Notes: generated by a model not told the origin, from the sequence alone. Positions 345 to 35,444 are shown, counted from the stretch's first letter. The stretch: DNA of 38,832 nt from an uncultured bacterium (GCA_963977445.1 CAXBPH010000030.1:1-38832), one strand, 5' to 3'. Made by a program: numbers and translations.

Positions 345-420
345 AGGCCTGTAGCACAATGGCTAGTGCAGCGGCCTCCAAAGCCGAAGGTTGGGGGTTC
401 GAGTCCCTCCAGGCCTGCCA
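345..420 (+). tRNA. trnW: tRNA-Trp (CCA)
   Basis: Cloverleaf: acceptor AGGCCTG/CAGGCCT, D arm GCAC/GTGC, anticodon loop CT-CCA-AA (anticodon 378-380), T loop TTCGAGT, encoded 3' CCA; usual position before secE. Confidence 0.97.
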
Positions 421-8851: not shown

Positions 8852-9991
8852 TCAGGGTTGCTTTGGCTGCAGTGTTACGCCCATTTCCTCGAGTACCTCT
8901 GCGATGGCGGCCAGTAACGCCTTAACGTCGGCGATGAAAATACGGCCGATGTTTCCGATTCGAAAGCAATCCGCGTTGCTGACTTTGCCGGGATATATCA
9001 CGTAGTCCCGGGCATTCAGCCGATCATAGAATGTGGCGAAGTCCCATTGGGGATGGTTGGGATAATGGAATGAGGTAATGATATAGCCCTGGAGATCGCG
9101 CTCCAGGTATTCGGTGAAACCGAGTCGGGCCATACCGTCGACCAGGGTGCGGTAGTTGCCTTCGTATCGGGCGCCCCGCCCTGCAACACCGCCTTCTTGT
9201 TCCAGTTCCAACAGGGCCTGATGGAAGGCGAGCAGGGCGTGGGTGGGCGGCGTAAAACGAAATTGCCCATTACTCTCCAGCCCCCGCCACTGGGACAACA
9301 AATCGAGACTGAGGCTGCGGGCCCAGCCTTCGGTTTCTTCCAGGGCATTGCGACGTGCGATGACGAATCCGAAACCGGGTACCCCCTCAATGCATTTGTT
9401 TGCCGATGAGACCAGGTAGTCAATTTTGGCGTCGGCCAGGTGGAGGGGCACGGCACCAAAACTACTCATGGCATCCACAAAATAGGAGGTCTTAAATTCC
9501 TTGGCCAGTGCACCAATGGCCGCCACCGGATTGATGATGCCGGTCGTGGTTTCACAATGTACCGTCGCCACATCGGTGATGCTGTCATCCGACTCCAGGG
9601 CCGCGCGGATGGCCACCAAATCGGGAACTTCATTCTCCGGGAAGACGAGGCAGGTGGTGGCGATGCCCAGCATGGTGCACATGGTTGCCATGCGCTGCCC
9701 ATAGGCGCCATTGATGACCAGCAGGACCTTGCCGTCGGGGCGTATGGTCGATGCGAAAACCGCTTCAATCGAGAAGGTTCCGCTTCCCTGCATGGGGATG
9801 GCCACATAGGTGTCGGCCGAAACCTGGCCCACATCCAGTAGTCGTTGGCGAATATCGGAAACACGGGTAATAAACTCGTGGTCCCGCGAACCGAGGTCCC
9901 GGAGAAGGGCTTGCTTAACGGTCTGACTCGTGGTGAGTGGTCCGGGGGTGAAAAGAATTTTATCCTTCCAGCCGGAAATGCGTTGGCTCAT
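8852..9991 (-). CDS. phnW: 2-aminoethylphosphonate--pyruvate transaminase
   Basis: LFTPGPLTTS, HCETTTG, DAMSSFG, SSANKCIEGVPG (PLP Lys), FRFTPPTH, IYPGK; ATG 9991 best spaced from GGAG; adjacent to phnX. Confidence 0.96.
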   Translation of the reverse strand: MSQRISGWKDKILFTPGPLTTSQTVKQALLRDLGSRDHEFITRVSDIRQRLLDVGQVSADTYVAIPMQGSGTFSIEAVFASTIRPDGKVLLVINGAYGQRMATMCTMLGIATTCLVFPENEVPDLVAIRAALESDDSITDVATVHCETTTGIINPVAAIGALAKEFKTSYFVDAMSSFGAVPLHLADAKIDYLVSSANKCIEGVPGFGFVIARRNALEETEGWARSLSLDLLSQWRGLESNGQFRFTPPTHALLAFHQALLELEQEGGVAGRGARYEGNYRTLVDGMARLGFTEYLERDLQGYIITSFHYPNHPQWDFATFYDRLNARDYVIYPGKVSNADCFRIGNIGRIFIADVKALLAAIAEVLEEMGVTLQPKQP

Positions 9992-10257
9992 GAACATTTC
10001 TCCACAGGGTTACAGTTCGAGTTTGCGTCCCGAAAATAGAAGGGTATCGCTATATCGAGCCTATTGTGGCGGAGTATGTCAAAGCGATTGTATATAAAGT
10101 CAAGTGAGGATTTGATTGGCAAGGAGCGGGCTGGCAGAGGGTATAAACGGAGCGGATTTAACCCGCCTGCGGCGCGCCGTTGGCCAACACCCACAACGCT
10201 GTTCATGCCTCGTGTCTTTGGTCTTCGGGTACACTTTTCGATTGATTGACCCGGACA

Positions 10258-11964
10258 CTACTGGCTTTCCCGCTCCAGGAGCAGCAATTCCTGGTCCGGG
10301 CCGAGCCACGTTGCGTAGGGCAATACGTCCCGGGTTACGTAACCTTCTCGGGGCTTCCATGCGATGGCGTAGACGTCGTCCACAACCCACCAGCCTTTTG
10401 GCCCCGATTTCAGGAAGGCCATCGGACCCAACCGTTCAATAAAGTGGTCGCTCGTGTACCACCCATTGAATTCATAGCCCCCGTCGATTTTTTCCGGGCG
10501 TATGCCCTCGGCCATGAGTTCGCCCAGGGCCTTCCAACGGACCTGATTCCAGGAGAGGTAGTCGTGTTGGGCGGCGAGGCTAAAAGAGAATTGCAGCGCC
10601 AGGCATATTCCTTGTGCCCAACAGATTACGGGCTTGGTCAGGATTGGAGCGCTTGCCACAAGTGCCAGCACCGGGACCAGCGCACCCAGGAGGTAGCGGT
10701 CAAAACGAACGGGGAGCCAGGGGTGATAGAGTGCGAGAATCGCGATGATGGCCCAGATTCCCAGAAAGGTCTGTTGTCTCCGGCGGACGGCCATTGCTGG
10801 CTCACGGTTCTCATTGGGCTTGCCCTTAAGCCAGACCAGTATAGCGGCCCCCATCCATGCCGCGCCGAGGAGTCCGGCGGCCGTCAGCAACCACCAGCCA
10901 TTGCCCCAGGCATGGGGCGTCCACATGCCGTCCTCTGAATAGTTTCCCCGCATGGTCATGGGGCCCAGTCCGAGGTCGTAGATGATGTTGCCCAGGTAGG
11001 GCATGCGATGGGGCGCGCGGGCAGCGGTAAAAATGACCAGCATCGTCAGGATGGGTGCCGTCCAAAGGAGGCGTCGCTTCCAGCAACCCACGTGGGGGGC
11101 TAGCCAGCAGGCGGCTGCACCCAGCACCAGGGGCAGCGCGAAAAGAGCGAGGTAAACGAACGTGATTCCGTAGAATTCCGGCGCACCCAGAAGCTGCTCC
11201 ATCAGGCCGTTCCCCAGGTTTCGGGGTTTCCAGACATGGCCAAGGGCACCCGCGTGTTGGGGCATCAGGTTCAGCAGGGTGAAAGCGATGAGCCACGGGG
11301 CACCGAGTGCGACAGCACAACGTCTGATTTTCGGCGTCCGCCATGAGCGCCACCGAGGGATAGAGACCAACAGAAAGGCGATCAGAATGACGGGGGCAAA
11401 CTGGCGGATAAGCAGGGCACCCGCACCGAAAAGCGAGCCGAGGAGACACCAGCGGGAACGGGGTGTTTCCAGTGCGCGTACATACCCATAACCCGACACG
11501 GCCATCATTGCCATAAACGGTACATCGGTCATAAAGGTGTACCCGAGATTGAAGGCGAGGGGGTTGGCGATAACCAACGTTCCGGCGAGCATGGCGGACC
11601 AGCGTTGGGCACCTATGGCACGCGCCGTTAAGCCGGTCGTTGCGGCTGCCAAGGCCCACAATACGATCGTCGACCAACGGAGCACCTCAAAACTGAACCC
11701 GAAGATCAGGCAAAAGAGTGTGCCCCAGGCGGCCTGGCCAATAAGGCTGGCGGTAGAAAAAGGGTGGCCTTCGAAATGGCCTGCGGCAAGCCATTGGGAT
11801 ACGGCCCGCCCGTAAATCCAATCATCGTTGAAGGGGAAGTTGCCCTGTGGTGGCACCAGCACCAACGCAAGCGCAAGAAGGGCCAGAGGGACGCCCGCGA
11901 CCCACAAGGCATCCCGCCATGGTCGGTGCCGATCGGCCGGCTCGGGCAAGATGCGCATGGTCAC
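10258..11964 (-). CDS. GT-C fold (ArnT/PMT-like) integral membrane glycosyltransferase
   Basis: FNDDWIY acidic motif after TM1, TFMTDVP, LIRQ, DRYLL, many TMs; start is GTG 11964 or ATG 11958. Confidence 0.75.
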   Translation of the reverse strand: MTMRILPEPADRHRPWRDALWVAGVPLALLALALVLVPPQGNFPFNDDWIYGRAVSQWLAAGHFEGHPFSTASLIGQAAWGTLFCLIFGFSFEVLRWSTIVLWALAAATTGLTARAIGAQRWSAMLAGTLVIANPLAFNLGYTFMTDVPFMAMMAVSGYGYVRALETPRSRWCLLGSLFGAGALLIRQFAPVILIAFLLVSIPRWRSWRTPKIRRCAVALGAPWLIAFTLLNLMPQHAGALGHVWKPRNLGNGLMEQLLGAPEFYGITFVYLALFALPLVLGAAACWLAPHVGCWKRRLLWTAPILTMLVIFTAARAPHRMPYLGNIIYDLGLGPMTMRGNYSEDGMWTPHAWGNGWWLLTAAGLLGAAWMGAAILVWLKGKPNENREPAMAVRRRQQTFLGIWAIIAILALYHPWLPVRFDRYLLGALVPVLALVASAPILTKPVICWAQGICLALQFSFSLAAQHDYLSWNQVRWKALGELMAEGIRPEKIDGGYEFNGWYTSDHFIERLGPMAFLKSGPKGWWVVDDVYAIAWKPREGYVTRDVLPYATWLGPDQELLLLERESQ

Positions 11965-11970
11965 GGTAAA

Positions 11971-12357
11971 CTACGTGAGTTGCTGGCTGAGGTAGGCTTC
12001 GACCCGGCTGCGATGGTCGCCCTGGAGCTCAATGAAGTCTTCTTTCAACACACCGCCCGTGGCGCAGAGTTTCCGCAGGGCCTTCAAGAGGGCATTGCCA
12101 TCTCCCGAGATATTGCGAATCACCGTGACCAGCTTACCTGCGGCCCGTTTCTCGAAAGAAACAGGCCAGCCGCCTTTTCGCGTCTTCGCAACACGATAGG
12201 AAACGGTGATGGGTGCGATAATCTCTGCCTGGGGCGCGGCTTTCTTCGGTGATTCGGTAGGCAATTGGTCCCGAATCGCGCCGAGATTGCCAAAGGGAGA
12301 ATCGGAGAGGGGAGTTCGGTCTGATGAAACGTCCACACGCTTTTTGGGGGTGGCCAT
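11971..12357 (-). CDS. yciH: Translation initiation factor SUI1/YciH family protein
   Basis: EKRAAGKLVTVI...LRKLCATGG...IELQGDHR motif; AGGAG RBS before ATG 12357. Confidence 0.88.
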   Translation of the reverse strand: MATPKKRVDVSSDRTPLSDSPFGNLGAIRDQLPTESPKKAAPQAEIIAPITVSYRVAKTRKGGWPVSFEKRAAGKLVTVIRNISGDGNALLKALRKLCATGGVLKEDFIELQGDHRSRVEAYLSQQLT

Positions 12358-12636: not shown

Positions 12637-13158
12637 ATGTTGTGCCAAAAATGCCATAAGCGATCAGGTACCATTCGTTATGCGGAGGTGGTTGATGGTC
12701 GCGTCACCGATCAGTTCTGGTGCACCGAGTGTCTCGCGCAGCAGCGCTCCGGGGACGTAGGGTTCGAGATCTCCGAGATTTCTCCGACCCGACCGAACCG
12801 GGATGCTATCCATAGCGTGGTCAGTCGGGTGGTCCAATCCCAGCAGACCTGTCCGGCCTGTGATACGCCCTTACAGCGTATTGTGGAAAGTAACCGGGTT
12901 GGTTGCACCACCTGCTACGAGACCTTCGAAAAACCACTCTCCGAGTTGGTAAACCGTCTCCAGAACAATACGATTCACACGGGGAAGGCCGCCCACTTGA
13001 CTGATGCACGTACCCAACTGCGGTCCGATCTTCGGTCAAAACGTTCGCTGTTGCGCAGTGTGCTCAAGGCGGAAAACTATGAAGAGGCGGCCATGCTTCG
13101 TGATGAGATCCGTTCCCTGGAATCGGGACTCTATATTTCTGAATCAGGAGCGGACTGA
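12637..13158 (+). CDS. mcsA: McsA protein-arginine kinase activator (UvrB/UvrC motif)
   Basis: Four CxxC motifs (CQKC, CTEC, CPAC, CTTC), HTGK, C-terminal ENYEEAAMLRDEI UVR motif; precedes mcsB-clpC. Confidence 0.9.
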   Translation: MLCQKCHKRSGTIRYAEVVDGRVTDQFWCTECLAQQRSGDVGFEISEISPTRPNRDAIHSVVSRVVQSQQTCPACDTPLQRIVESNRVGCTTCYETFEKPLSELVNRLQNNTIHTGKAAHLTDARTQLRSDLRSKRSLLRSVLKAENYEEAAMLRDEIRSLESGLYISESGAD

Positions 13159-13161
13159 GCC

Positions 13162-14325
13162 ATGCATATAGCCCCCCTACTCAAGCAAGATCCGACCTGG
13201 CAACAGGGTTCAACAGGTGTACACAACGACGTCGTCATACTTTGCGACTGCAACCTGGGTCGCAATCTGATTGATTTTCCCTTTCCCGCTCAGTGTACTT
13301 CCGAAGAGCGGGTTGCGGTCGAATCCCGCATTGTCGCGGTGTTGGACCAGTTAAACCTGCTGGCCAGTGGTCACTATTTCCGATTGCCCGAATTGTCCTA
13401 TTCGGAGACCCAATTGCTGGCCGAACGCCAGTTAATCCCCCATGCACTGACCCATCCCGTATCGGGCCAGGGGGTCTATGTCTCCCAGGATCAAAGCCTG
13501 AGCATTATCGTCAATGATGAAGATCACTGCTGTATTCGCGTGCTGACCTCGGGTCTCCAGCTCCAGGATGGCTGGGCACGCGCCAGCCTGATGGACGATA
13601 CGCTGGGGGCCATCCTCGACTTTTCCTTCTCCCCGAAGTTCGGATTTCTCTCGCAGAACCTGTCCCATCTGGGTACCGGCCTCCTCTGCACCGTCCTGCT
13701 TCACTTGCCTGGCTGTGCCCAGCGTAACGAATTGCCGGAGCTCCGGGAACTTGCAACCAGCCTTGACATCAATTTTCGCGGCGTGGGTATCGGTGCGCCA
13801 TCATCTGGCTCCCGTGCGGAAGCGTCGGCCCACGCAGACCCCCGTCAGGCCCTTTATAGCAATATGGACGGGTTTGCGCCCCGTGCCCCCCATGAATCCG
13901 AGGGGGACCTTTTTCAGCTTTCCAATCACTCGACCCTGGGTCGGACGGAGGAAGAGCTCCTGTTTCAGTTGAAGCAGTGTGCCACTACCATTATTGAGCG
14001 TGAAGAAGGTATTCGCCGTCAAATGCGCGATAATGAAGGGGAAATACTGTCTGACCGGGTGGAACGGGCCCGGGCGCTGGCGCTGAAGGCCCGTTTGGTG
14101 CCTTTTGACGAGAGTATGAGTCTCTTGTCCTCCCTGCGACTGGGCGTGTCTCTGGGGCTGATTTCCGATGTTTCCCTGGCGGCCCTGAACGGTACGCTTA
14201 TTCAGTGTCAGGATGCCCACGTGGAAGCCCATCGGATCCGGGATGAAGGCCCTGTCGGAGATCAGGATCGCAAGCGTTTCCGGGCCGCCCTGCTGAAGGC
14301 ACAGTTTTTTTCGCCAAACAATTAA
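13162..14325 (+). CDS. mcsB: McsB-like ATP:guanido phosphotransferase homolog, catalytic residues degenerate
   Basis: LGRN..FPFP, VNDEDH, LGTG, HLP, FQLSNHSTLG, SSLRLG align with McsB; synteny with mcsA and clpC. See findings for missing residues. Confidence 0.85.
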   Translation: MHIAPLLKQDPTWQQGSTGVHNDVVILCDCNLGRNLIDFPFPAQCTSEERVAVESRIVAVLDQLNLLASGHYFRLPELSYSETQLLAERQLIPHALTHPVSGQGVYVSQDQSLSIIVNDEDHCCIRVLTSGLQLQDGWARASLMDDTLGAILDFSFSPKFGFLSQNLSHLGTGLLCTVLLHLPGCAQRNELPELRELATSLDINFRGVGIGAPSSGSRAEASAHADPRQALYSNMDGFAPRAPHESEGDLFQLSNHSTLGRTEEELLFQLKQCATTIIEREEGIRRQMRDNEGEILSDRVERARALALKARLVPFDESMSLLSSLRLGVSLGLISDVSLAALNGTLIQCQDAHVEAHRIRDEGPVGDQDRKRFRAALLKAQFFSPNN

Positions 14326-14488
14326 TAAGTCTCCGCACAACGCGGGGTGTAAACAACATACCCTTTTGCTTTAAACTACAGTAGCGCCTTGGGCTTCGCA
14401 ATCATGCGAAGGACTCGCGCGATACGGTGTCAGCCTCTCCAACCGGTCCCTATTGAGATCCGGAGAGATGAAATGAAAGGAACGCCAC

Positions 14489-16951
14489 ATGTGGGAACGA
14501 TTTACGGAGCGCGCCAAGCACGTTGTCAGCGCGGCACGTGAAGAAGCCACCCGCCTGGGTAGCGAATACGTACGTACGGAACATATTCTACTGGGTCTGT
14601 GCCGGGAACCTGAGGGCATCGCCGCGCGCGCGCTGGAGAATCTGGGTGTCGATATAGAGGCCCTGGCCAGCGAAATCGAGCAGCAGGTCCAGCCGGGTTC
14701 CGCCGCCGTATCGGGCGAAGAGATAGCCTTCACGCCCCGCGCCAAGAAAGTCCTCGAACTGGCCGTGGAAGAGGCACGTCGCTTCAACCACAGCTATATC
14801 GGTACCGAGCACATCCTCCTCGGCCTCCTCAAAGAAGGGGAAGGCATTGCTGCCAAAGTACTTCAGGACATGAAAATCGACCTCGGTCGCATTCAGGCCG
14901 AAGTCATTCGACTCCTGGGCGACCAGGGTCGTCCCAGTGGAGAGCAGGCGCAATCGAGCAAGAAATCTCAGACCCCGGCCCTTGATAACTTTGGTCGTGA
15001 TCTCACCCAATTGGCCCGCGATGACAAATTGGACCCCGTTATCGGGCGAGAAGGCGAAATCGAACGGGTAATTCAGGTATTGAGCCGTCGCACCAAGAAT
15101 AACCCGGTACTGATCGGTGAGGCAGGCGTGGGTAAGACGGCCATCGTGGAAGGCCTTGCCCAAGCCATTATCAACGGTGATGTGCCCGACCTGTTGCTCA
15201 AAAAGCGGGTACTTACCCTCGATTTGGCCGGTGTGGTCGCCGGTACCAAGTACCGCGGTCAATTTGAAGAGCGGCTCAAGTCGGTCATGAAAGAAATTCG
15301 TCGGGCGGACAATGTAATTCTGTTCATCGACGAGCTCCATACCATCGTAGGTGCCGGTGCGGCCGAAGGTGCCGTGGATGCGGCGAATATGCTGAAACCG
15401 GCCTTGGCCCGTGGCGAACTGCAGTGCATTGGTGCCACGACCATGGATGAATACCGCAAGTATATCGAGAAAGATGCGGCCTTGGCCCGTCGTTTTCAGA
15501 CCATAATCGTGGATGCCCCGTCGGTGGAGCAGACCATTCAGATTATCAAAGGCCTTCGTGACAAATACGAAGCCCACCACCGGGTTAAATTTTCCGACGA
15601 AGCCGTCATTGCTGCGGCCAAGTTGTCGAACCAGTATATTGCTGACCGCTATCTTCCAGACAAAGCGGTGGACGTTATTGATGAGGCCGGAAGCCGGGCC
15701 CGTCTCCAGATCACTACCCGCCCCATCGAGCACAAGCAGATCGAGCAGGAAATCGAGAAGGTGACGCAGGAGAAGGAATCGGCTATTCGTCGGCAGGAAT
15801 ACGAGAAGGCGGCCAGCCTTCGCGACGAAGAGCGTACCCTGATCAACAAGCTGGAAGAAAAGAAGCGTGAGTGGGAGATGAAGCGGGATTCCGCGGAAAC
15901 GATTATTAACGAAGAAGATATCGCCTATATCGTGTCCAAGTGGACCGGCGTTCCCCTTACCAAGCTGGAAGAAAAAGAGTCGGAGCGTCTGCTGCGCATG
16001 CGCGACGAGCTGCACCGCTCGGTTATCGGTCAGCACGAAGCCATTGATTCAATTACCCGGGCCATTCAACGGTCCCGGGCGGGTTTCCGGGACCACGCGC
16101 GCCCGGTGGGCTCCTTCCTTTGCCTCGGACCGACCGGTGTGGGCAAGACTCTGCTCGCCAAATCCCTCGCGTCCTTCCTTTTTGGCAACGAAGAGGCCCT
16201 GATTACCGTCGACATGTCCGAGTATATGGAACGCTTCGCCGTTTCACGGTTAACCGGTGCCCCTCCGGGCTATGTGGGCTACAACGAAGGGGGCCAGCTT
16301 ACCGAGCAGGTTCGACGTCGTCCCTATTCGGTTGTGCTCTTCGACGAGATCGAAAAAGCACACCCCGATGTGTTCAATGCCCTGCTTCAGGTTCTCGAAG
16401 AGGGCCAGATGACCGATTCTACCGGGCGTAAAGTTGATTTTCGTAACACGGTCATTATCATGACCAGCAACGTGGGTGCCCGTCGAATCAGTAAAGGTGG
16501 CGGTGCCATGGGCTTTCAGCGGGATGACGAAGCGTCCCTGTATGCCCGCATGAAAGAACGGGTGATTGAAGAAGCGAAGAAGGTCTTCAATCCCGAATTC
16601 CTGAACCGTCTTGATGACACCCTCGTGTTCCACCGTCTCAATGATGACCAGCTTATCGACATCGTCGACATCCAAGTAAAATCCATGGTAGATCGGGTGG
16701 CCGAAAAGGATGTACACTTGCGCCTCAACCGAGAAGCCAAAGAGTTCCTGGTTCGCTTGGGAAGTAATGAAGAATATGGTGCCCGGCCGCTTCGTCGCGC
16801 CGTTCAGCAATATATTGAAGATCCCCTGGCGGAATTGCTGCTGCGGGGTAATCTTGAACCGGGAACAAAGATTGAAGTCTGGCCCTCGGACACGGAAGAG
16901 AAATTGGTGTTTGAAACGGCTGCATTAGCTGTGGAAGGTGTAACTACTTGA
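14489..16951 (+). CDS. clpC: ATP-dependent Clp protease ATP-binding subunit ClpC
   Basis: Two Clp-N repeats, Walker A GEAGVGKT and [11 protein letters not shown]-type middle domain, MGF ClpP-docking loop, YGARPLRR. Confidence 0.97.
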
Positions 16952-20094: not shown

Positions 20095-21126
20095 ATGAAC
20101 ATGACGGTTGGCGATATCGCGGTCATGGTCGGCGGTACCGTTTCGGGTGACGCGTCGGTGATGATTACCGGTTTGAACGGAGTCGATGAGGCCGGTTCGG
20201 GAGATCTCTGTTTCTGCAGAAACCTCCGCTATCTGCCGAAGCTGGTGGCATCAAAAGCGTCAGCAGTCTTGATTCAGGAAGCGCCGGAAGGCCTGGCAAT
20301 GTCCGCCATCATCGTTTCCCAGCCCGATTTGGCCTTTGCCATGGTGCTCAAGCATTGCGAGACGCTTTTCTTGCACCATCCCAAGGGCATTCATGCCTCG
20401 GCGGTTATTCACTCCGAAGCGACGCTCGGTGCCGATGTGGCCGTGGGTGCGTGTGCGATTATCGAGGCCGGCGCAAATCTGGCCGACGGCGTGATTGTCT
20501 ATGCCGGGTCCTATATCGGCAGAGATGTGAAGATAGGCCATGGAACCATCGTCTATCCCAACGTGACCATACGTGAAGAGACCGAAATTGGTCGCCATTG
20601 TATTATTCACGCCGGTGCAACCATCGCCAGCGATGGTTTTGGCTACGCCCCGATGGACGGTACCTGGATGAAGATTCCCCAAGTCGGTCGGGTGGTGTTA
20701 GGAGACGATGTTGAAATAGGATCGGGCACCTGTATCGACCGGGCAACCTTCGGCGTTACGCGTGTCGGAACAGGTACGAAAATTGACAATTTGGTCCAAG
20801 TCGGACACAATGTTCAAATAGGAGAACATTGCGCGCTCGCCGGTATGGTTGGGGTCGCGGGTAGCGCCGAGTTGAAGGACCGGGTACAGGTCGGTGCCAC
20901 GGGTGCTATTAAGGGGCACCTGACGGTTGGCGAAGGAGCTACGGTGGCAGCACGGAGTGGCGTTGTGCGGTCTGTTGAGCCGGGTGCGACCGTGTCGGGA
21001 TTTCCCGCCATCGCTCACCATGAGGAGCTGCGGGTTATCGTCGCTCAGCGCCGATTGCCTGAACTCATTCGACGAATCAAGGTGCTGGAGCGGGAGCTCG
21101 AAGCAGTGAAAGAGCAGCTTACATGA
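20095..21126 (+). CDS. lpxD: UDP-3-O-acylglucosamine N-acyltransferase
   Basis: Hexapeptide repeats, DGFGY, KIPQVG, IDRAT, GTKIDNLVQVGHN. Confidence 0.96.
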   Translation: MNMTVGDIAVMVGGTVSGDASVMITGLNGVDEAGSGDLCFCRNLRYLPKLVASKASAVLIQEAPEGLAMSAIIVSQPDLAFAMVLKHCETLFLHHPKGIHASAVIHSEATLGADVAVGACAIIEAGANLADGVIVYAGSYIGRDVKIGHGTIVYPNVTIREETEIGRHCIIHAGATIASDGFGYAPMDGTWMKIPQVGRVVLGDDVEIGSGTCIDRATFGVTRVGTGTKIDNLVQVGHNVQIGEHCALAGMVGVAGSAELKDRVQVGATGAIKGHLTVGEGATVAARSGVVRSVEPGATVSGFPAIAHHEELRVIVAQRRLPELIRRIKVLERELEAVKEQLT

Positions 21127-22451
21127 GTAAACAAAAGACGATTAAAGAACCGGCCTCCTTTTCCGGAATCGGACTGCATACCGGCAGCCTGACCACGGTA
21201 AAATTCAAGCCCGCCCCGGAAAATTCCGGTATTACGTTCTATCGAGTCGATCTCGAGGGGTGCCCCGCGATTCCCGCAGATGTGGATAACGTGGTGGGCG
21301 TTGCCCGGGGAACGACGCTGGGTATCGGTGATGCCAAAGTTCACACCGTCGAGCATGCCCTTTCCGCTATGGCTGGCCTCGGTATCGACAATCTGGATAT
21401 CGAGCTTGACGCGGAAGAAATTCCCTCAGGCGATGGCAGCTCCATGCCCGTCATGACGGCCCTGCTCAAAGCGGGTATCGTGGAGCAAGAAGCAGAAAAG
21501 CAATATATTACCGTGGACCGTCCCGTTTACTATCGTCAGGGCGACGTCACGTTGAGCATACTGCCTTCAGATGAACATCGGGTTTCCATGACGATCGCCT
21601 ATGATCACGTGGCGATTGGAACCCAGTACGCGTCGTTTACCATTACGGAAGAAACTTACAAGAAAGAAATAGCACCGGCCCGTACTTTCTGCTTCCTTCG
21701 CGAAGTGAAGATGCTCCAGGAAAAAGGACTAATCCGGGGCGGCAGTCTGGAGAGTGCCGTTGTCATTGGCGACGACACTATCCTGAATGACGACCTCCGT
21801 TTTCCCGACGAGTTTGTGCGCCACAAGATTCTTGATCTTATCGGCGATATGTATCTCCTGGGCCGCCCGATTAAGGGCCATATCGTCAGTGTGAAGGGGG
21901 GCCACGAAAAGAATGTCCTCTTTTCCAAGCAAATAAAGAAAGCCCTGGCCAACGGCAGTGCCTCACGGAATCAGTCCGTACCGGCCTCCGCCCAGATGAA
22001 TCGTCCACCGGCCCTCGATGTGAGTAAGATCATGAAGATCCTTCCGCACCGTTACCCCTTCTTGCTCGTGGACCGAATTCTATCCTTCGTACCTATGGAA
22101 CGGGTGACAGGTATTAAGAATGTCACCGTGAACGAGCCGTTTTTCCAGGGACATTGGCCGGAAACGCCCGTCATGCCCGGTGTAATGATAATCGAAGCCA
22201 TGGCCCAGGTAAGCGCCGTACTCATCTTTGGCGACAACCGGGATCCCGATGGCAAGCTCGCCTTCTTCCTGGGGGTTGACAAGGCCCGTTTCCGTCGCAC
22301 CGTGGTGCCTGGGGATCAGTTGCTCATCGAATGCGAGATGGTACGGTCACGGCGCAACGCCTGCAAGGTGGCCGCCAAAGCCTTGGTGGACGGCAACGTC
22401 GTCGCCGAAGCCATCATGACCTTCGGCCTCATGGCGATGGACGAGCTATAA
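21123..22451 (+). CDS. lpxC-fabZ: Bifunctional LpxC deacetylase / FabZ dehydratase fusion
   Basis: GIGLHTG, TVEH, ARTF, HKILDLIGD (LpxC) followed in frame by LPHRYPFLLVD, FFQGHWP, PGVMIIEAMAQ (FabZ). Confidence 0.95.
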   Translation: MSKQKTIKEPASFSGIGLHTGSLTTVKFKPAPENSGITFYRVDLEGCPAIPADVDNVVGVARGTTLGIGDAKVHTVEHALSAMAGLGIDNLDIELDAEEIPSGDGSSMPVMTALLKAGIVEQEAEKQYITVDRPVYYRQGDVTLSILPSDEHRVSMTIAYDHVAIGTQYASFTITEETYKKEIAPARTFCFLREVKMLQEKGLIRGGSLESAVVIGDDTILNDDLRFPDEFVRHKILDLIGDMYLLGRPIKGHIVSVKGGHEKNVLFSKQIKKALANGSASRNQSVPASAQMNRPPALDVSKIMKILPHRYPFLLVDRILSFVPMERVTGIKNVTVNEPFFQGHWPETPVMPGVMIIEAMAQVSAVLIFGDNRDPDGKLAFFLGVDKARFRRTVVPGDQLLIECEMVRSRRNACKVAAKALVDGNVVAEAIMTFGLMAMDEL

Positions 22452-30543: not shown

Positions 30544-30925
30544 CGACAGCCGACTCCGAGTGGGGGCTGTACCCCGTCGATTCACGTCGATGACAATCTT
30601 CAGTCAAGGTTGACCATTTATTGCGCTACGCGACACGATGTCTATTTACACTATTGCGCAATCCAATAGGGTCAATAGTGAGCAGACCCACCTTCCCTAT
30701 CCCTTTCTTCGCCCTGCTACGCTCCTTCTGCGTGTCATCGGGTTGTTGCCCAACCGTCCCCGAACCCCTGCTATATGCGAGTGTAAGTTGCTTAATAAAA
30801 GGGGGTTAGGAGGTTCAAGGTGCGATGCGTAGCATGACGTAAGTAGGTGGCATCCACCTCTGGGCGACCGTTGTAGAGTCCCTCTACTATGACGAAATAG
30901 CATCATTTTCAGGGGTGAACGCTCA

Positions 30926-30942
30926 TTGGCACGTAGGTTGCT
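30926..30942 (+). promoter_or_regulatory. Sigma54 (-24/-12) promoter
   Basis: TTGGCACG-TAGG-TTGCT matches TGGCACG-N4-TTGCW exactly; intergenic and oriented toward the gene at 31343. Confidence 0.75.
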
Positions 30943-31342
30943 CTAATACGAGTATCACAATCACCTCAACGCAGCGCCGAATCCGCGATGGAGTACGGCA
31001 CCCCCGCTCAGAATCTGGGCGACATCCTGCGAAGTATTGCGAATCGTTCCCAGGCGTCTTTTGTGACCGACCTCCAAAGGGCACCTGTTTCAGGGGGATG
31101 ATGTATTGGCCCTGAGGCCCGGTTGAGCGCGAATTGCGCCATCGCGCTGCTTCTCCAACGCAATGATTGAGTCCGAAAGCATTGGTTCACGATGCCGTTT
31201 TAACCCATGAACGATTTCGGATACCTCGACGGGTGACGTCACCCAATCAGGTTCAGCAGGTGTAGGACAATTCGACCAAGATCTGGAGATGCATAGCGGG
31301 CAGCATTGCCGGAAACTCCGATGGAGAAAGTTCAGGTGTAGC

Positions 31343-32437
31343 ATGGAAGTACATCATGAGGCACAAGAGAAAACGCCGCTGGCGAACCCAGCCGACAATC
31401 GTCGGCGGGGGCTTTACCTGACCATCGGGTTCATGATGCTCCTGCCAATTTTACTGGCACCAACCCACCCTATCGCCGTGTATGCCTTTCTCGCCGATAC
31501 CTACGGGCGGCCCTTGATCGAAATTGAGCCTCGCGAAATAGACCCCGATCTCGAAGCCTTTCTAATCACACCACACCAGCTTTCGCGCTACCGGGATGAC
31601 CTCCGTTCCGATATGCTTGACACCCGCACGGGCTGGCTCTTTGCTATCGTTCGCGGTGTGGATGGTCGCCTGGAGCAGGCACCAATACGAACCTGGAATA
31701 CATTTCTCCCCGATGTTGTGCACAAATTTCTGGGTGGGTGGCTCGACCAGAAGGAAATTCCCTATCTCGGTGATGCCGTAGCACTCTGGATGGATGGCGG
31801 CACCATCGTGGCCATGGGGCACTACCATCCCTTTGGTGGCGGTCCCTCTGCAGGTGACCGACGGGCCCAGTCCCTCTCCCTTTATGCCGAAGTCGTTGTT
31901 TCCAATGGGGTCATTCCCATGGTCTATGTGGAAGGTGAGGTTGTTCCCTATGGAGCCCATGCCCGCATTTCCGTTGACGTGTTCCGAAACATTCGCGCCT
32001 TGGAAAAAAGTCTTCTTATGGAGGTGAAAGATATCCCCATAGCGATGAAGGTTCCCAGCCGTGAGTTGATTTCGGTGCTTGCCTATCTACGGGATTACCG
32101 GGGGGCCAATCTGACCGACAAGAAAGATGTCGCGGCTACGCTCAGCACATTGTGCCTTGAATTCAGGGCGATCCATGAGCCGGTCTTTCAAAACGGATTT
32201 TCCCCACTGGCCTATCAATCTGATCCAGACAAACTGGCGGTTCTGCACAATCTCATCAATCTGGAATTCTGGACGGTTGTCGTGGCTGGGTCAAATCGAG
32301 CCTCTGGATCTCAGGATCTGGTGGTCGTAGAGAACGGCGGCGGGGAGATTCAACCGTTTATAGGGGGGGCCCCCGATACGAATTCCTCTACCCCAATGAT
32401 TGCGGCCCTGTCTCCCCAACACATAGACGCCGTCTGA
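31343..32437 (+). CDS. Membrane-anchored JAB/MPN-like domain protein, paralog 1 (Glu position is Thr)
   Basis: N-terminal RRR plus hydrophobic anchor; GHYHPFGGGPSAGD motif; gapless alignment to 34375..35337, which fixes the start at ATG 31343. Confidence 0.8.
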   Translation: MEVHHEAQEKTPLANPADNRRRGLYLTIGFMMLLPILLAPTHPIAVYAFLADTYGRPLIEIEPREIDPDLEAFLITPHQLSRYRDDLRSDMLDTRTGWLFAIVRGVDGRLEQAPIRTWNTFLPDVVHKFLGGWLDQKEIPYLGDAVALWMDGGTIVAMGHYHPFGGGPSAGDRRAQSLSLYAEVVVSNGVIPMVYVEGEVVPYGAHARISVDVFRNIRALEKSLLMEVKDIPIAMKVPSRELISVLAYLRDYRGANLTDKKDVAATLSTLCLEFRAIHEPVFQNGFSPLAYQSDPDKLAVLHNLINLEFWTVVVAGSNRASGSQDLVVVENGGGEIQPFIGGAPDTNSSTPMIAALSPQHIDAV

Positions 32438-32678
32438 CACCCTCTGCCCTGGTTGCGGCGTAAGGGGAATCGCCAAGATTAAAGTATTTACAGGCTTGGG
32501 CCGAAAACGGCGCCCATGACTGACAAGATCCACGGTCCGTGATAAAGTTTTGAGTGCAGGGCATGAGTGAAACGTACCCCTACCATTGCAGAAGCATACG
32601 TCTGAGGTGGTTCGCTTTATGAGGGGCACTATCTCATCGAAATAACAGGGGTCGGACTTCGTTCTATCAGGTTCAACC

Positions 32679-32723
32679 CAAAGCTTGTTGCTCGCCTCAT
32701 CGTGCTGATGGCGGGCGCTTTTT
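32679..32723 (+). terminator. Terminator-like hairpin about 35 bp upstream of the PASTA pseudogene start
   Basis: GCTCGCC...GGCGGGC stem followed by GCTTTTT. Confidence 0.4.
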
Positions 32724-32756
32724 CATGAACTGAACGGTCCTATCGAGGTGCTCACT

Positions 32757-33602
32757 GTGAAAAAGTTCGTTCCCTTTCTAAAGTTGCTCTCCACAATGGC
32801 AGCCCTAGTCGTTTTTCAGGGATGTGAACCTACTACAACGCTAGTTAGCGTTCCTGATGTGAAGGGTTGACGCAGGAGGCCGAAGAAACCTCGCTTGCCA
32901 ACGCGAACTTGAGCCTGGGCGCGGTATCAGAAGCGGCCAGCGATACCGTTGTCGCCGATTTGGTGATCTCACAAAGCCCCACCGGGGGAAACGATGTCGC
33001 GCCGTACTCTGCCGTCGCGATAACGGTCTTGACCGGGCCAGGCACGGCGGGCGAATGTGAATGTGAGACCTTCGAGACGACGGTAACGGGCCGCCTGGTC
33101 TACAACGATGAATCTCCCGTAAAAGGCGCAACCATCACGTCCAGTTTTGAGGGGACCGTTTCCAGCGATGCCAATGGCGACTTTTCGCTGGTCATCACGG
33201 TAACCGGAAATCCGGCGTCGCCCCCGGACGTAACCATATCGGCCACGGTTAGCGTGGAGCAGACTCGACCTGGTCGTGGCCAACTATGGCAGCCAGGGCT
33301 TGTCCGTGCTCTTGGGCAATGGAGACGGTACCTTCCAATCGGGATTGACCACCACGTCGGATGGGCCCACGGACATGGCGCTGGCAGACTTTGACAGAGA
33401 CGGCAATCTGGATCTGGCAACCGCCAATGGCACCGAAATAGTGATGTTCCTTGGCAAGGGTACGGGTCGTTTTGAGCCTGCTGTTCCCATTAGCAGCGCC
33501 CGCGGTTCCGACGCCATACTCTCAGGCGACTTCAATGGCGACGAGAAAATAGATTTGGCTACGACCAATGGCAACAATGTTCAGATAATTCTGCAACGCT
33601 AA
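32757..33602 (+). pseudogene. Disrupted lipoprotein: PASTA domain + Ig/carboxypeptidase-regulatory-like domain + FG-GAP repeats
   Basis: GTG 32757 (GAGGTG RBS) gives MKKFVPFLKLLSTMAALVVFQGC-EPTTTLVSVPDVKG*; the PASTA domain continues in another frame from 32867 (LTQEAEETSL...SDTV...VISQSP...TGP); second frame switch near 33261 into RLDLVVANYGSQGLSVLLGNGDGTF FG-GAP repeats. Confidence 0.82.
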
Positions 33603-33659
33603 TCGGGGCGCCGGATGGGTTCATTCGGGAGTCCCTGAATGCCCTGTAAAGTAAATAAG

Positions 33660-33702
33660 CCATGGGGAGTCGTAAGCATGTAATGCTTGCGACTCCCCAT
33701 GG
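33660..33702. repeat. Long inverted repeat (20-bp arms, 3-nt loop)
   Basis: CCATGGGGAGTCGTAAGCAT-GTA-ATGCTTGCGACTCCCCATGG, one mismatch (G-U on the + strand). Confidence 0.85.
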
Positions 33703-33950
33703 GTGTTTAGAGCGGGTGTGGCAGTGACGGGGGTGTAATTGGGGCACCCATCCCACCCGTCAACCTCCAGTCTCCCGAAGATGGGCCACACGCCAGTGTG
33801 TATGTGCTCTGTGCTCCGGAATCCAAAAATTTCTCGGAAAAGAGCGCATAGTCCATGTAGGGGCAGGAAACTGCTTCGCCCTTGGGGCACCGCCCTCCCC
33901 GGCGTTCTCAATCAGCATCTCCTGCCGCTTTTTCGCTCACCGACAGAAAA

Positions 33951-33967
33951 TTGGCACGCAAACTGCG
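33951..33967 (+). promoter_or_regulatory. Sigma54 (-24/-12) promoter
   Basis: TTGGCACG-CAAA-CTGCG: invariant GG and GC at correct spacing, two deviations in the -12 box; same relative position as the site upstream of paralog 1. Confidence 0.6.
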
Positions 33968-34034
33968 TTAAAGATGCAGTACTGCGGCACCAACCGGGAT
34001 GCCTCGCACCAGTAAATCGGCCGAATTATATCGC

Positions 34035-34047
34035 TAATGCACTGATA
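34035..34047 (-). promoter_or_regulatory. IHF-like binding site
   Basis: Minus strand TATCAGTGCATTA fits WATCARNNNNTTR, in AT-rich context about 70 bp downstream of the sigma54 site. Confidence 0.35.
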
Positions 34048-34374
34048 TAAAACGCGTTAACAGAAAGAGTTGACTTAAGCGGCAACGAGCGACGGGTCGT
34101 TATAAAGTGACCCCATCGTAGGGTTTCTTTGTAAAGTATCCGAATCGTAACCAAAACCAACGTCATCTCGGGCTTTGTCCATCCCACGCCCAGGGGAATC
34201 GGCATGCTCCGGCGCGAGAATCACTCGCCAAGACGACCAATAGTAATAATGCGTCTGAAAATACGTGAAAAATAAGACAAAACATACCCGGAATGCCAAA
34301 AAATAATACGCATGAGTAATAACGACGCATTGGTAGGTGTTGTTGTAACGTAAACCAAGGAAGTACGGTGTACC

Positions 34375-35337
34375 ATGGAAGTTCGTCATGAGGCACAGGA
34401 AGCTCCGCGCAGGTGTCAATTCAGATTCAAGCGCTATCGGATCCTCCTCACAGTTTTAATTGCAGCCCTCTTGCTGCCCGCGGTCTTGTCACCCACCCAT
34501 CCCATCGCCGTCTATGGCTATCTTTTCGATACCTATGTGCCGCCACTCATGGCCCCCGTGGCGGCCGGCGTGGATGATGGTCTCACCGACTTTCTCATCA
34601 CACCCGACCAGTTGGACCGCTATCGGGATGAATTGTTCGCTGATTTTAACGATGAACGGGGCGGTAAGCTTTTTGTCATCGTTCGGGAGTCCGGTGGTGA
34701 TTTCCGGCATGAACCCATCCGGACCTGGAATTCGTTCCTGCCGGAGGAATTACCCACCGCCATAAGTCGTTGGCTGGACCGAAAAGAATTGCCCTACCTG
34801 GGCGATTCGGTGGACCTGTGGATGAACGGCGACGAGATCGTTGCCGTCGGACACTATCACCCCTATGGGGGTGGGCCGTCGCCCGGTGATCAGCGTGCCC
34901 AGTCTTTCTCGAAATTTGCCGAGGTCGTGGTATCCAACGGGATCGTTCCCATGGTCTACCTCCACGGGGAAATCATACCCTATGGCAATAACGTGAAGAT
35001 CTCCAACAGCCATTACCGCACCATGCGGACGCTGGAGCGGGGCTTGCTCATGGAGATTAAAGAGATAGCGGTATCGCCCGCGACACCGAGCATCCGCTTC
35101 GCCGCCTTTCTTGCTTACCTGCGGGATTACCGCCATGTGGACCTCACCGACAAACATCGCGTCGCCAGCGAAGTGTACGCTATGTGCGCAACCTTTAAGC
35201 GCACCTACGCGGAGGCCTTCACCAAAGGCTTCCGACCTTTTGCTTACCGGGAAGAGCCCGACAAGCATTCCATGCTGAGCAACTTGAGCAATGTGGAGCT
35301 CTGGGCTGCGGGTGTTAAATACTTTCGGAATCCGTAA
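34375..35337 (+). CDS. Membrane-anchored JAB/MPN+ (JAMM)-like metalloprotease, paralog 2
   Basis: Basic n-region plus TM; LITPDQLDRYRDELFADFNDERGGKLF (E94) ... IVAVGHYHPYGGGPSPGD (H160, H162, S169, D172) ... EVVVS follows the JAB core pattern. Confidence 0.8.
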   Translation: MEVRHEAQEAPRRCQFRFKRYRILLTVLIAALLLPAVLSPTHPIAVYGYLFDTYVPPLMAPVAAGVDDGLTDFLITPDQLDRYRDELFADFNDERGGKLFVIVRESGGDFRHEPIRTWNSFLPEELPTAISRWLDRKELPYLGDSVDLWMNGDEIVAVGHYHPYGGGPSPGDQRAQSFSKFAEVVVSNGIVPMVYLHGEIIPYGNNVKISNSHYRTMRTLERGLLMEIKEIAVSPATPSIRFAAFLAYLRDYRHVDLTDKHRVASEVYAMCATFKRTYAEAFTKGFRPFAYREEPDKHSMLSNLSNVELWAAGVKYFRNP

Positions 35338-35398: not shown

Positions 35399-35444
35399 CG
35401 CGGAAACGCCCCAGAGTCGGGGCGTTTCCGCGTTTTCATTTTTT
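35399..35444 (+). terminator. Rho-independent terminator after paralog 2
   Basis: 14-bp perfect stem CGCGGAAACGCCCC/GGGGCGTTTCCGCG followed by TTTTCATTTTTT. Confidence 0.85.

Follow-up and report, generated by a model that had tools for sequence, protein, structure and literature searches.

A contig of 38,832 nt from an uncultured bacterium (GCA_963977445.1 CAXBPH010000030.1:1-38832; this whole stretch is the window referred to below) encodes two paralogous proteins of 364 and 320 aa, which belong to an unnamed, small and sequence-isolated family, a branch of the JAB/MPN superfamily. JAB/JAMM enzymes are known as cytoplasmic or nuclear isopeptidases tied to ubiquitin-like proteins (Ubl), sulfur carriers, phage tails or the antiphage system CBASS. 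The two window proteins are instead predicted to be anchored in the inner membrane with their JAB/MPN-like domain outside the cytoplasm, and on balance we take them to be outward-facing, metal-dependent hydrolases that use a non-canonical acid, a reading to which we give somewhat better than an even chance. Both paralogs appear to lack the canonical glutamate, and both retain all of the metal ligands; on the evidence of their residues they are equivalent, and neither is to be regarded as the "active" one.

31343..32437, plus strand: paralog 1 gene, 364 aa (open reading frame (ORF) list and translation; family hidden Markov model (HMM), E 5e-140)
34375..35337, plus strand: paralog 2 gene, 320 aa (ORF list and translation; family HMM, E 4e-149)

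An earlier sequence-only reading of this DNA had described two paralogs aligning without gaps, each with a basic N-terminus, a single hydrophobic segment and the motif H-Y-H-P-x-G-G-G-P-S-x-G-D. Both ORFs are present, BLASTP aligns them with 160 identities in 314 positions (51%), 0 gaps and an E-value of 1e-114, and the three features are found in both proteins.

The metal motif and the missing glutamate

The residues on which the argument turns are located as follows.

31820..31858, plus strand: paralog 1 metal motif, H160-Y-H-P-F-G-G-G-P-S-A-G-D172 (translation, family alignment)
34852..34890, plus strand: paralog 2 metal motif, H160-Y-H-P-Y-G-G-G-P-S-P-G-D172 (translation, family alignment)
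34654..34665, plus strand: paralog 2 codons 94-97 (E-R-G-G), with E94 in a variable column and G97 at the column where distant relatives carry Glu
34786..34788, plus strand: paralog 2 Glu138, a clade-specific invariant acid (column counts)
31754..31756, plus strand: paralog 1 equivalent of Glu138 (gapless alignment)

Conservation was counted in an alignment of 58 family sequences, consisting of 48 members of the clade to which the window proteins belong and 10 distant relatives, one of them archaeal; three database duplicates of locus proteins and fragments shorter than 280 aa had been left out. H160, H162, S169 and D172 are invariant in 58/58 sequences, and the motif is therefore conserved far beyond chance. 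The JAMM motif is written ExnHxHx7Sx2D in PMC9313428. In both paralogs the spacer from His to Ser is 6 instead of the canonical 7, as had been read earlier, and hhalign against E. coli YeeS (a RadC-like JAB protein) opens a one-residue gap exactly at this loop.

The sequence-only reading had placed the catalytic Glu at position 94, where paralog 2 has D-E-R-G-G-K-L-F and paralog 1 has D-T-R-T-G-W-L-F, and had concluded that one paralog looked active and the other lacked the Glu. The difference in residues stands, and its catalytic interpretation does not. Column 94 is variable (T in 19, E in 6 and other residues in 23 of the 48 clade sequences), Glu was gained there on at least four separate occasions in the tree, and the two copies in assembly SJ408 carry D94 and R94. 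Column 97 is Gly in both window paralogs, as it is in 43 clade members (Ser in 4 and Pro in 1 of the 48), and both retain all metal ligands. The same column is Glu in 10/10 distant relatives, in the motif S-E-[KHR]-x-F-x-I, aligned without a gap. This Glu precedes H160 by 63 residues and is found directly ahead of the strand after the long helix, and judging from motif pattern, spacing and predicted secondary structure, column 97 is the expected place of the JAMM Glu. Two other references proved unsuitable for mapping the residue, since the annotated lambda K protein starts just before H-x-H, without the Glu-bearing part, and hhalign with YeeS aligned the motif block alone.

Another acid may take the place of the missing Glu. 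Column 138 is Glu in 48/48 clade members and in 0/10 distant relatives; it lies in the context W-L-D-[RQ]-K-E-[LI]-P, after the second strand pair and ahead of the strand that bears H-x-H, in a segment equivalent to the Ins-1 of JAMM enzymes. According to PMC4822132, Glu104 in Ins-1 of CSN5 reaches the zinc as a fourth ligand, and by this precedent Glu138 is a candidate substitute base or ligand. A second candidate acid may be Asp93, present in 42/48 clade sequences and mostly kept in the distant relatives.

Evidence for a JAB/MPN fold

34582..34989, plus strand: paralog 2 JAB/MPN-like domain, residues ~70-205 (model secondary structure, Foldseek, Atlas, Pfam)
31550..31957, plus strand: paralog 1 JAB/MPN-like domain, residues ~70-205 (gapless alignment to paralog 2)
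35005..35322, plus strand: paralog 2 C-terminal helical domain, residues 211-316 (helices in the AlphaFold (AF2) model)
31973..32290, plus strand: paralog 1 equivalent of the C-terminal helical domain (equivalence to paralog 2)

The AF2 model of full-length paralog 2, built with a 33-row family alignment, has a predicted local distance difference test score (pLDDT) of 86.6 and a predicted template modelling score (pTM) of 0.82. At its N-terminus it has a long helix (residues 7-38) and then a juxtamembrane one (45-59), followed by a helix at 77-91, strands at 98-104 and 110-117 and further helices; a strand at 154-162 ends in H-x-H, a helix at 170-177 begins at the Ser/Asp, and two more strands follow. 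The block 131-140 is less confident (pLDDT 71). PMC9313428 describes the MPN fold as a beta sheet bordered by a long helix alpha1 that comes ahead of strand beta2; the metal motif sits at the end of a strand and on the helix after it.

A Foldseek search of the PDB with this model listed 45 rows, of which 43 are JAB/MPN entries, with a top probability of 1.00. They include the structural-genomics entries 2kks and 2kcq, PfJAMM1, the Caldiarchaeum Rpn11 homolog, a bacterial Ubl-deubiquitinase, RadC and BRCC36, together with chains of the proteasome, the COP9 signalosome and EMC that we take to be their MPN subunits; the remaining two rows are cytidine deaminases. The best named matches in BFVD are "JAB domain-containing protein". 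In the ESM Atlas the top three feature clusters consist to 96-98% of PF14464 (scores 0.85-0.86), a Prok-JAB cluster there aligns to residues 74-206 (TM-score 0.62, normalised to the cluster's own length), and the structural rows cover residues 72-206. The only Pfam match is again Prok-JAB (PF14464), to paralog 2 residues 80-177, with E 0.13 and a score of 12.6 bits, where the gathering cut-off is 25. Foldseek rows, Atlas leads and the one weak Pfam match thus all point to JAB, as the sequence-only reading had proposed, if at weak E-values, and we regard the predicted JAB/MPN fold as well supported, not proven.

The helical C-terminal domain that had been anticipated also appears in the model, as four helices (211-225, 240-253, 260-277 and 295-316), and a profile search against PDB sequences gave no informative match to it. 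The top rows of that search for this domain (Lpg2149, L10 and Bcl-2 homologs; E 0.7-1.3) were treated as chance; the chains of Legionella Lpg2149 match paralog 2 residues 209-286 (about 34999..35232) at E 0.7-1.0, which is not significant.

Predicted membrane anchor and topology, and natural fusions

31424..31480, plus strand: paralog 1 predicted membrane anchor, residues 28-46 (Kyte-Doolittle mean 1.79)
34441..34497, plus strand: paralog 2 predicted membrane anchor, residues 23-41 (Kyte-Doolittle mean 2.32)

Charges were counted over the 20 residues before and the 30 residues after the best 19-residue hydrophobic stretch. Paralog 2 has 7 Lys+Arg before its anchor vs 0 after it, and paralog 1 has 4 vs 2. 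Across the family the N-terminal segment is the most hydrophobic 19-mer in 31/33 rows, and a bias towards more Lys+Arg before than after it is seen in 30/31; the next most hydrophobic peak falls on a JAB-domain strand.

Natural fusions bear on the same question. In the relative P0041 a PKD domain comes after the helical domain, and the relatives longer than 560 aa (P0036, P0070 and P0071) carry a C-terminal ThuA domain in 3/3 cases, two of them being full length with a basic N-terminus and anchor. A free ThuA-DUF6807 protein encoded at a relative's locus (L003) has a Sec-type signal peptide followed by L-Q-V-L-L-L-S-G-Q-N-N-H-A-W, and the junction in the fusions, [VA]-L-[LI]-L-S-G-Q-N-N-H, is the mature start of ThuA; fused and free ThuA parts share 62-70% identity. 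The C-terminal side of the family proteins is therefore placed outside the cytoplasm, because an otherwise exported ThuA is fused there in place of its signal peptide. Charge bias together with the PKD and mature-ThuA fusions supports the predicted N-in/C-out, probably periplasm-facing topology, which had been proposed earlier from the positive charges of the two window proteins.

The family, its loci and its surroundings

Database searches found 32 relatives at E <= 0.001 among 5.8 billion proteins and 37 representatives among 1.84 billion, and the only name that they bear in the protein sources is "hypothetical protein". The window paralogs have no Pfam assignment above cut-off and no NCBIfam, PADLOC or PHROG assignment, Pfam gave no JAB match for 12 distant relatives, and no periplasmic, transmembrane or membrane-anchored JAB/JAMM family was among the papers listed by literature searches aimed at one, in agreement with the earlier suggestion that the family is undescribed. 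A bridge from the distant members to PF14464 was also sought and not found: a profile of these members had 23 matches among the 5.8 billion proteins, all within the same family.

The family comes for the most part from Hydrogenedentota assemblies. With one genome per species searched, relatives are encoded at 8 loci: six in Hydrogenedentota/Hydrogenedentales, one on a metagenome chromosome and one in a Pacearchaeota archaeon (30% identity). Most family members are known solely as metagenome proteins, and the neighbourhoods described here cover the 8 loci and the window. Among these nine stretches eight carry one family gene each and the window alone carries two; assembly SJ408 has two members on separate contigs (L006 and L007), which belong to different deep clades. 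Both window paralogs fall within a single 12-row subclade (Shimodaira-Hasegawa-like approximate likelihood ratio test 97), whose members start at M-E-V and are without the family's ~90-residue cytoplasmic N-terminal domain. In each paralog, 3 of 75 conserved columns differ from the family consensus. The conservation of the N-terminus M-E-V-[RH]-H is unusual for a cytoplasmic tail. A 224-aa fragment (P0003) on a 1010-nt contig of another public assembly matches the first 215 residues of paralog 2 at 96-99% identity, and therefore the same or a very close organism has been sampled in another assembly.

The loci differ in their gene content. L001 and L002 have a BNR protein and CorA as neighbours. 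A syntenic order is shared by L003-L005, namely a xylose-isomerase-like TIM barrel, the family gene, ThuA-DUF6807, Gfo/Idh/MocA with a twin-arginine (TAT) signal and FGE-sulfatase/BNR; in L003 (8869..16410) these form an operon-like same-strand row in which ThuA starts 12 nt past the family gene. The two SJ408 loci have a sulfatase, a metallophosphatase and an FGE-sulfatase/arylsulfotransferase protein (L006) and TrkA and GH123 (L007). The archaeal locus (L008) has MNT/HepT and ParE toxin-antitoxin modules and unassigned proteins of 692 and 533 aa. Its family member (9746..12148), of 800 aa, retains a canonical-type Glu and is lengthened by a long C-terminal extension whose last part resembles the end of the bacterial P0048. 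Only the link to ThuA counts as specific, because the other neighbours are abundant exported carbohydrate-active families; it consists of two fusion lineages and one adjacency lineage. A literature search on ThuA/ThuB found nothing usable.

No Ubl, E1 or E2 gene was detected by Pfam in the 25 larger ORFs of the window, as had been stated before, nor in 38 smaller ORFs (60-200 aa) from the region 29.3-38.5 kb, and the small upstream ORFs had no match. In related loci, 28 Pfam queries on a sample of the ORFs flanking the family gene likewise gave no Ubl, E1 or E2. Three small ORFs ending in Gly-Gly were considered as Ubl candidates and none is credible; two of them were scanned with Pfam, without a match. 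PADLOC reported 0 families for both paralogs, and PHROG no meaningful match to window proteins.

A putative envelope hydrolase and its alternatives

In the reading that we favour, each protein would cross the inner membrane once, with a short basic N-terminus in the cytoplasm, and the remainder, made up of the conserved juxtamembrane helix, the JAB/MPN-fold domain and the four-helix C-terminal domain, would probably be periplasmic. Its metal site, His-x-His-x6-Ser-x2-Asp, would be intact, the missing acid would be supplied by Glu138 in the Ins-1 segment or by the nearly invariant Asp93, and the protein would act as a zinc-dependent amide or peptide hydrolase outside the cytoplasm, independently of ubiquitin-like conjugation. 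In several relatives it is physically coupled to a secreted ThuA(-DUF6807), either fused to it or lying beside it as the neighbouring gene. The paralogy of the two genes, the conserved motif, the distribution of the family and its fusions and neighbours are observed, and prediction supports the fold and the topology; what we infer is that the proteins bind metal and act as hydrolases, that Glu138 has a part in this and that ThuA is functionally tied to them. A much bolder version would make this family the first outward-facing JAB branch, a zinc hydrolase whose acid has moved from the strand position at column 97 to Glu138 in an Ins-1-like loop and which, together with secreted ThuA-DUF6807, acts on an envelope- or glycan-derived amide with no Ubl involved; taken as a whole we hold this to be rather unlikely.

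Several observations weigh against the favoured reading. As to the fold, no Foldseek match reaches E <= 0.001 (the best are 7.7e-3 in the PDB and 5.5e-3 in BFVD) and the Foldseek TM-scores are 0.2-0.45; the Atlas feature scores are below 0.9, under which they count as leads only, and its structural rows derive from a poor model made by the Atlas itself (pLDDT 0.44). Family profiles run against PDB sequences reach no JAB protein and give no E-value below 0.3, a domain-only AF2 model (residues 66-210, 9-row alignment) has a pLDDT of 38.4 and a pTM of 0.25, hhalign with YeeS covers the motif block only, over 37 columns and at 11.5% probability, and Prok-JAB is missed at its cut-off, with 1/33 family members matching at E <= 10. 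As to the active site, column 97 is equated with the JAMM Glu other than by alignment to a canonical JAMM protein, the clustering of His/His/Asp and the position of Glu138 and Asp93 are predictions at the level of sequence, the swap of Glu97 for Glu138 is a single split on the tree and carries no statistical weight, and without the canonical Glu the proteins may not be catalytic at all. The topology is likewise a prediction, there is no ThuA in the window (best tblastn E 0.029), and neighbours differ between loci.

The last point on the active site leads to the most serious rival, to which we give a limited chance: the family would be a non-catalytic metal-binding protein or scaffold, which has lost its general-base Glu and serves periplasmic partners, for example of ThuA type, as a tether to the membrane, a chaperone or a receptor, the His/His/Asp site being kept for structure or metal sensing. 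Column 97 is never Glu in the 48/48 clade members, relatives are fused to or lie beside a secreted ThuA just as an anchor would be, and MPN domains often act as scaffolds (PMC9313428). Known MPN- scaffolds, however, are without the JAMM motif (PMC4822132), whereas this family keeps H, H, S and D in every one of the 58 sequences. Moreover, the clade with the new invariant acid, Glu138, is the very one that lost Glu97. The equivalent of Ser169 in JAMM enzymes presumably has a catalytic and not a metal-binding role. We consider it very improbable that paralog 2, with E94, is an active JAMM enzyme and paralog 1, with T94, its inactive MPN- partner, the heterodimer that the sequence-only reading had suggested as possible. 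The E94/T94 difference is real, the genes are 1.9 kb apart, and SJ408 also has two family members, though on separate contigs. MPN- partners are defined by the absence of the JAMM motif (PMC4822132), and since both window paralogs keep the motif residues they do not form an MPN+/MPN- pair; both are also equally close to the family consensus, with Gly at column 97 and all metal ligands in place, in addition to the variability and repeated gain of Glu at column 94. Of the stretches examined, 8/9 have a single copy, and the SJ408 pair (D94/R94) comes from different deep clades. A heterodimer prediction with residues 62-320 of both paralogs scored 0.00 in both runs (mark 0.32) and weighs neither way.

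Two further explanations concern the nature of the domain and the side of the membrane on which it lies. A canonical, cytoplasm-facing JAMM peptidase of a Ubl, sulfur-carrier or defence system (CBASS Cap3-like), which is merely tethered, would be in keeping with the fold matches to a bacterial Ubl-deubiquitinase and archaeal JAMM1, but we find it hardly credible, as no Ubl, E1 or E2 is found in the 25 + 38 ORFs or in the variable neighbourhoods, PADLOC is empty, and charge bias as well as the PKD and mature-ThuA fusions put the C-terminal side outside. Equally remote in our view is the absence of any JAB domain, with H-x-H...D arising by chance on an unrelated or a related but different fold such as that of cytidine deaminases. 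All fold E-values above 0.001, the two cytidine deaminases among the PDB rows and the failure of sequence profiles to reach a JAB protein speak for it. Against it, 43 of the 45 PDB rows listed and the top named BFVD rows are JAB/MPN proteins at probabilities up to 1.00, the independent Atlas leads and the sole Pfam match name the same family, and H-x-H, Ser and x2-Asp stand in the expected strand-then-helix context.

Comparison with known JAB/MPN proteins

The nearest known proteins are those of Prok-JAB (PF14464) and the archaeal JAMM1 type (2kks, 2kcq and 5ld9), which provide the best fold matches, the sole Pfam match and the top Atlas clusters, and which have in common with the window proteins H-x-H...S-x2-D on a strand followed by a helix. 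They are soluble, cytoplasmic proteins of ~130-150 aa, and in PMC9313428 their motif (ExnHxHx7Sx2D) has an upstream Glu and a 7-residue spacer. The window proteins differ by their membrane anchor, predicted outward orientation, 6-residue spacer, Gly at the Glu column and an added helical domain of 110 residues. A combination of MPN fold and C-terminal helices like theirs is seen in the eukaryotic pairs Rpn11/Rpn8, CSN5/CSN6 and BRCC36/Abraxas, to which many Foldseek rows belong. In these pairs the MPN- subunit is without the JAMM motif (PMC4822132), whereas the window paralogs both keep it, and the eukaryotic pairs act on ubiquitin or Nedd8 in the cytosol or nucleus, whereas no Ubl system was found in the window.

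Phage proteins of the lambda K type (JAB + NlpC/P60) and other phage JAB proteins work without a ubiquitin system, and phage JAB proteins are the top BFVD matches and the first Atlas structural row; lambda K-type proteins, however, are not membrane-anchored and include a fused C40 peptidase, and the spacer in the annotated lambda K is 7. RadC-like JAB proteins (E. coli YeeS; 2qlc, which is among the Foldseek rows) have the block H-x-H-P-x-G...P-S-x2-D in common with the window proteins, but they are cytoplasmic, and the loop of the window proteins is one residue shorter. The bacterial Ubl-deubiquitinase 8tyx, considered here together with CBASS Cap3, is a JAB fold match at Foldseek rank 9. The window has no PADLOC match and no CD-NTase, E1/E2-like Cap2 or Ubl gene nearby, and its proteins are, unlike Cap3, membrane-anchored and predicted to face outward.

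Gene boundaries and neighbouring genes of the window

32291..32434, plus strand: paralog 1 extra C-terminal tail, residues 317-364, Gly/Ser-rich (sequence)
35399..35432, plus strand: terminator-like hairpin, 62 nt past the paralog 2 stop (14-bp stem with 11 G-C pairs, then a T-run; consensus match only)

An alternative ATG exists upstream of paralog 1 at 31289. The start at 31343 (M-E-V-H-H) is preferred, because M-E-V opens 9/33 family rows and because the 44 nt spanning the start codons of the two paralogs have 84% DNA identity. Paralog 2 has an in-frame stop 8 codons upstream and no alternative start. The extra tail of paralog 1, which had been noticed earlier, amounts to about 48 C-terminal residues; it sits where relatives carry linkers to ThuA or PKD domains, and may thus be a linker. 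A promoter scan found 3 candidates vs 3.4 expected, which is chance level.

Upstream of each paralog lie ~770-800 nt in which there is no credible ORF (30544..31342 and 33603..34374), and the two regions have no mutual similarity except around the start codons. Rfam, run on the whole window, found one tRNA at 345..417 and nothing in these regions. The in-frame sequence directly before the start of paralog 2 (34237..34374) reads M-R-L-K..., as the beginnings of several long relatives do, and contains two stop codons; its last ~20 codons have a weak likeness, by tblastn, to the end of the family's cytoplasmic N-terminal domain. This stretch, together with 31289..31342, is possibly a decayed remnant of that domain.

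The window looks like part of a diderm-type chromosome (BamA, Skp, LpxD, an LpxC-FabZ fusion, NusG and L1). Neighbours of the pair include a LacI-family regulator, a Gfo/Idh/MocA oxidoreductase, an FG-GAP lipoprotein and a BTP transporter. The LacI gene and the divergent Gfo/Idh/MocA gene, the latter with a twin-arginine-like N-terminus, lie upstream of paralog 1 and are separated from it by the ~800 nt without a credible ORF. Gfo/Idh/MocA was rejected as a conserved partner, the window copy being ~33% identical to all locus copies without specific orthology. Between the paralogs lies a gene (32758..33602, plus strand) that is broken across three reading frames: the first contains a lipoprotein-type signal ending in F-Q-G-C and the first PASTA residues, with a stop at 32868, another (32867..33394) contains PASTA and then a beta-rich region, and the third (33276..33602) FG-GAP repeats. 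Either the gene is a pseudogene or the assembly is in error here. Farther away, a UVR-motif protein, an ATP:guanido phosphotransferase and a ClpC-type AAA+ ATPase are encoded in a row (12637..16951, plus strand) directly upstream of BamA, which we take to be the McsA/McsB/ClpC arrangement, presumably better known from Firmicutes and here in a diderm-type genome. The LpxC-FabZ fusion is a single ORF (21123..22451, plus strand) with LpxC (PF03331) and FabA/FabZ-like (PF07977) domains.

Significance

The immediate impact of these observations is limited, as the family is small, its organisms are uncultured and its properties are predictions only. If the favoured reading is true, it would extend the chemistry and cell biology of the JAB fold into the bacterial envelope, and it would give a first functional handle on the widespread and poorly understood ThuA/DUF6807 proteins of Hydrogenedentota-type genomes. 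The family is also a natural test of whether a JAMM site works with a relocated acid.

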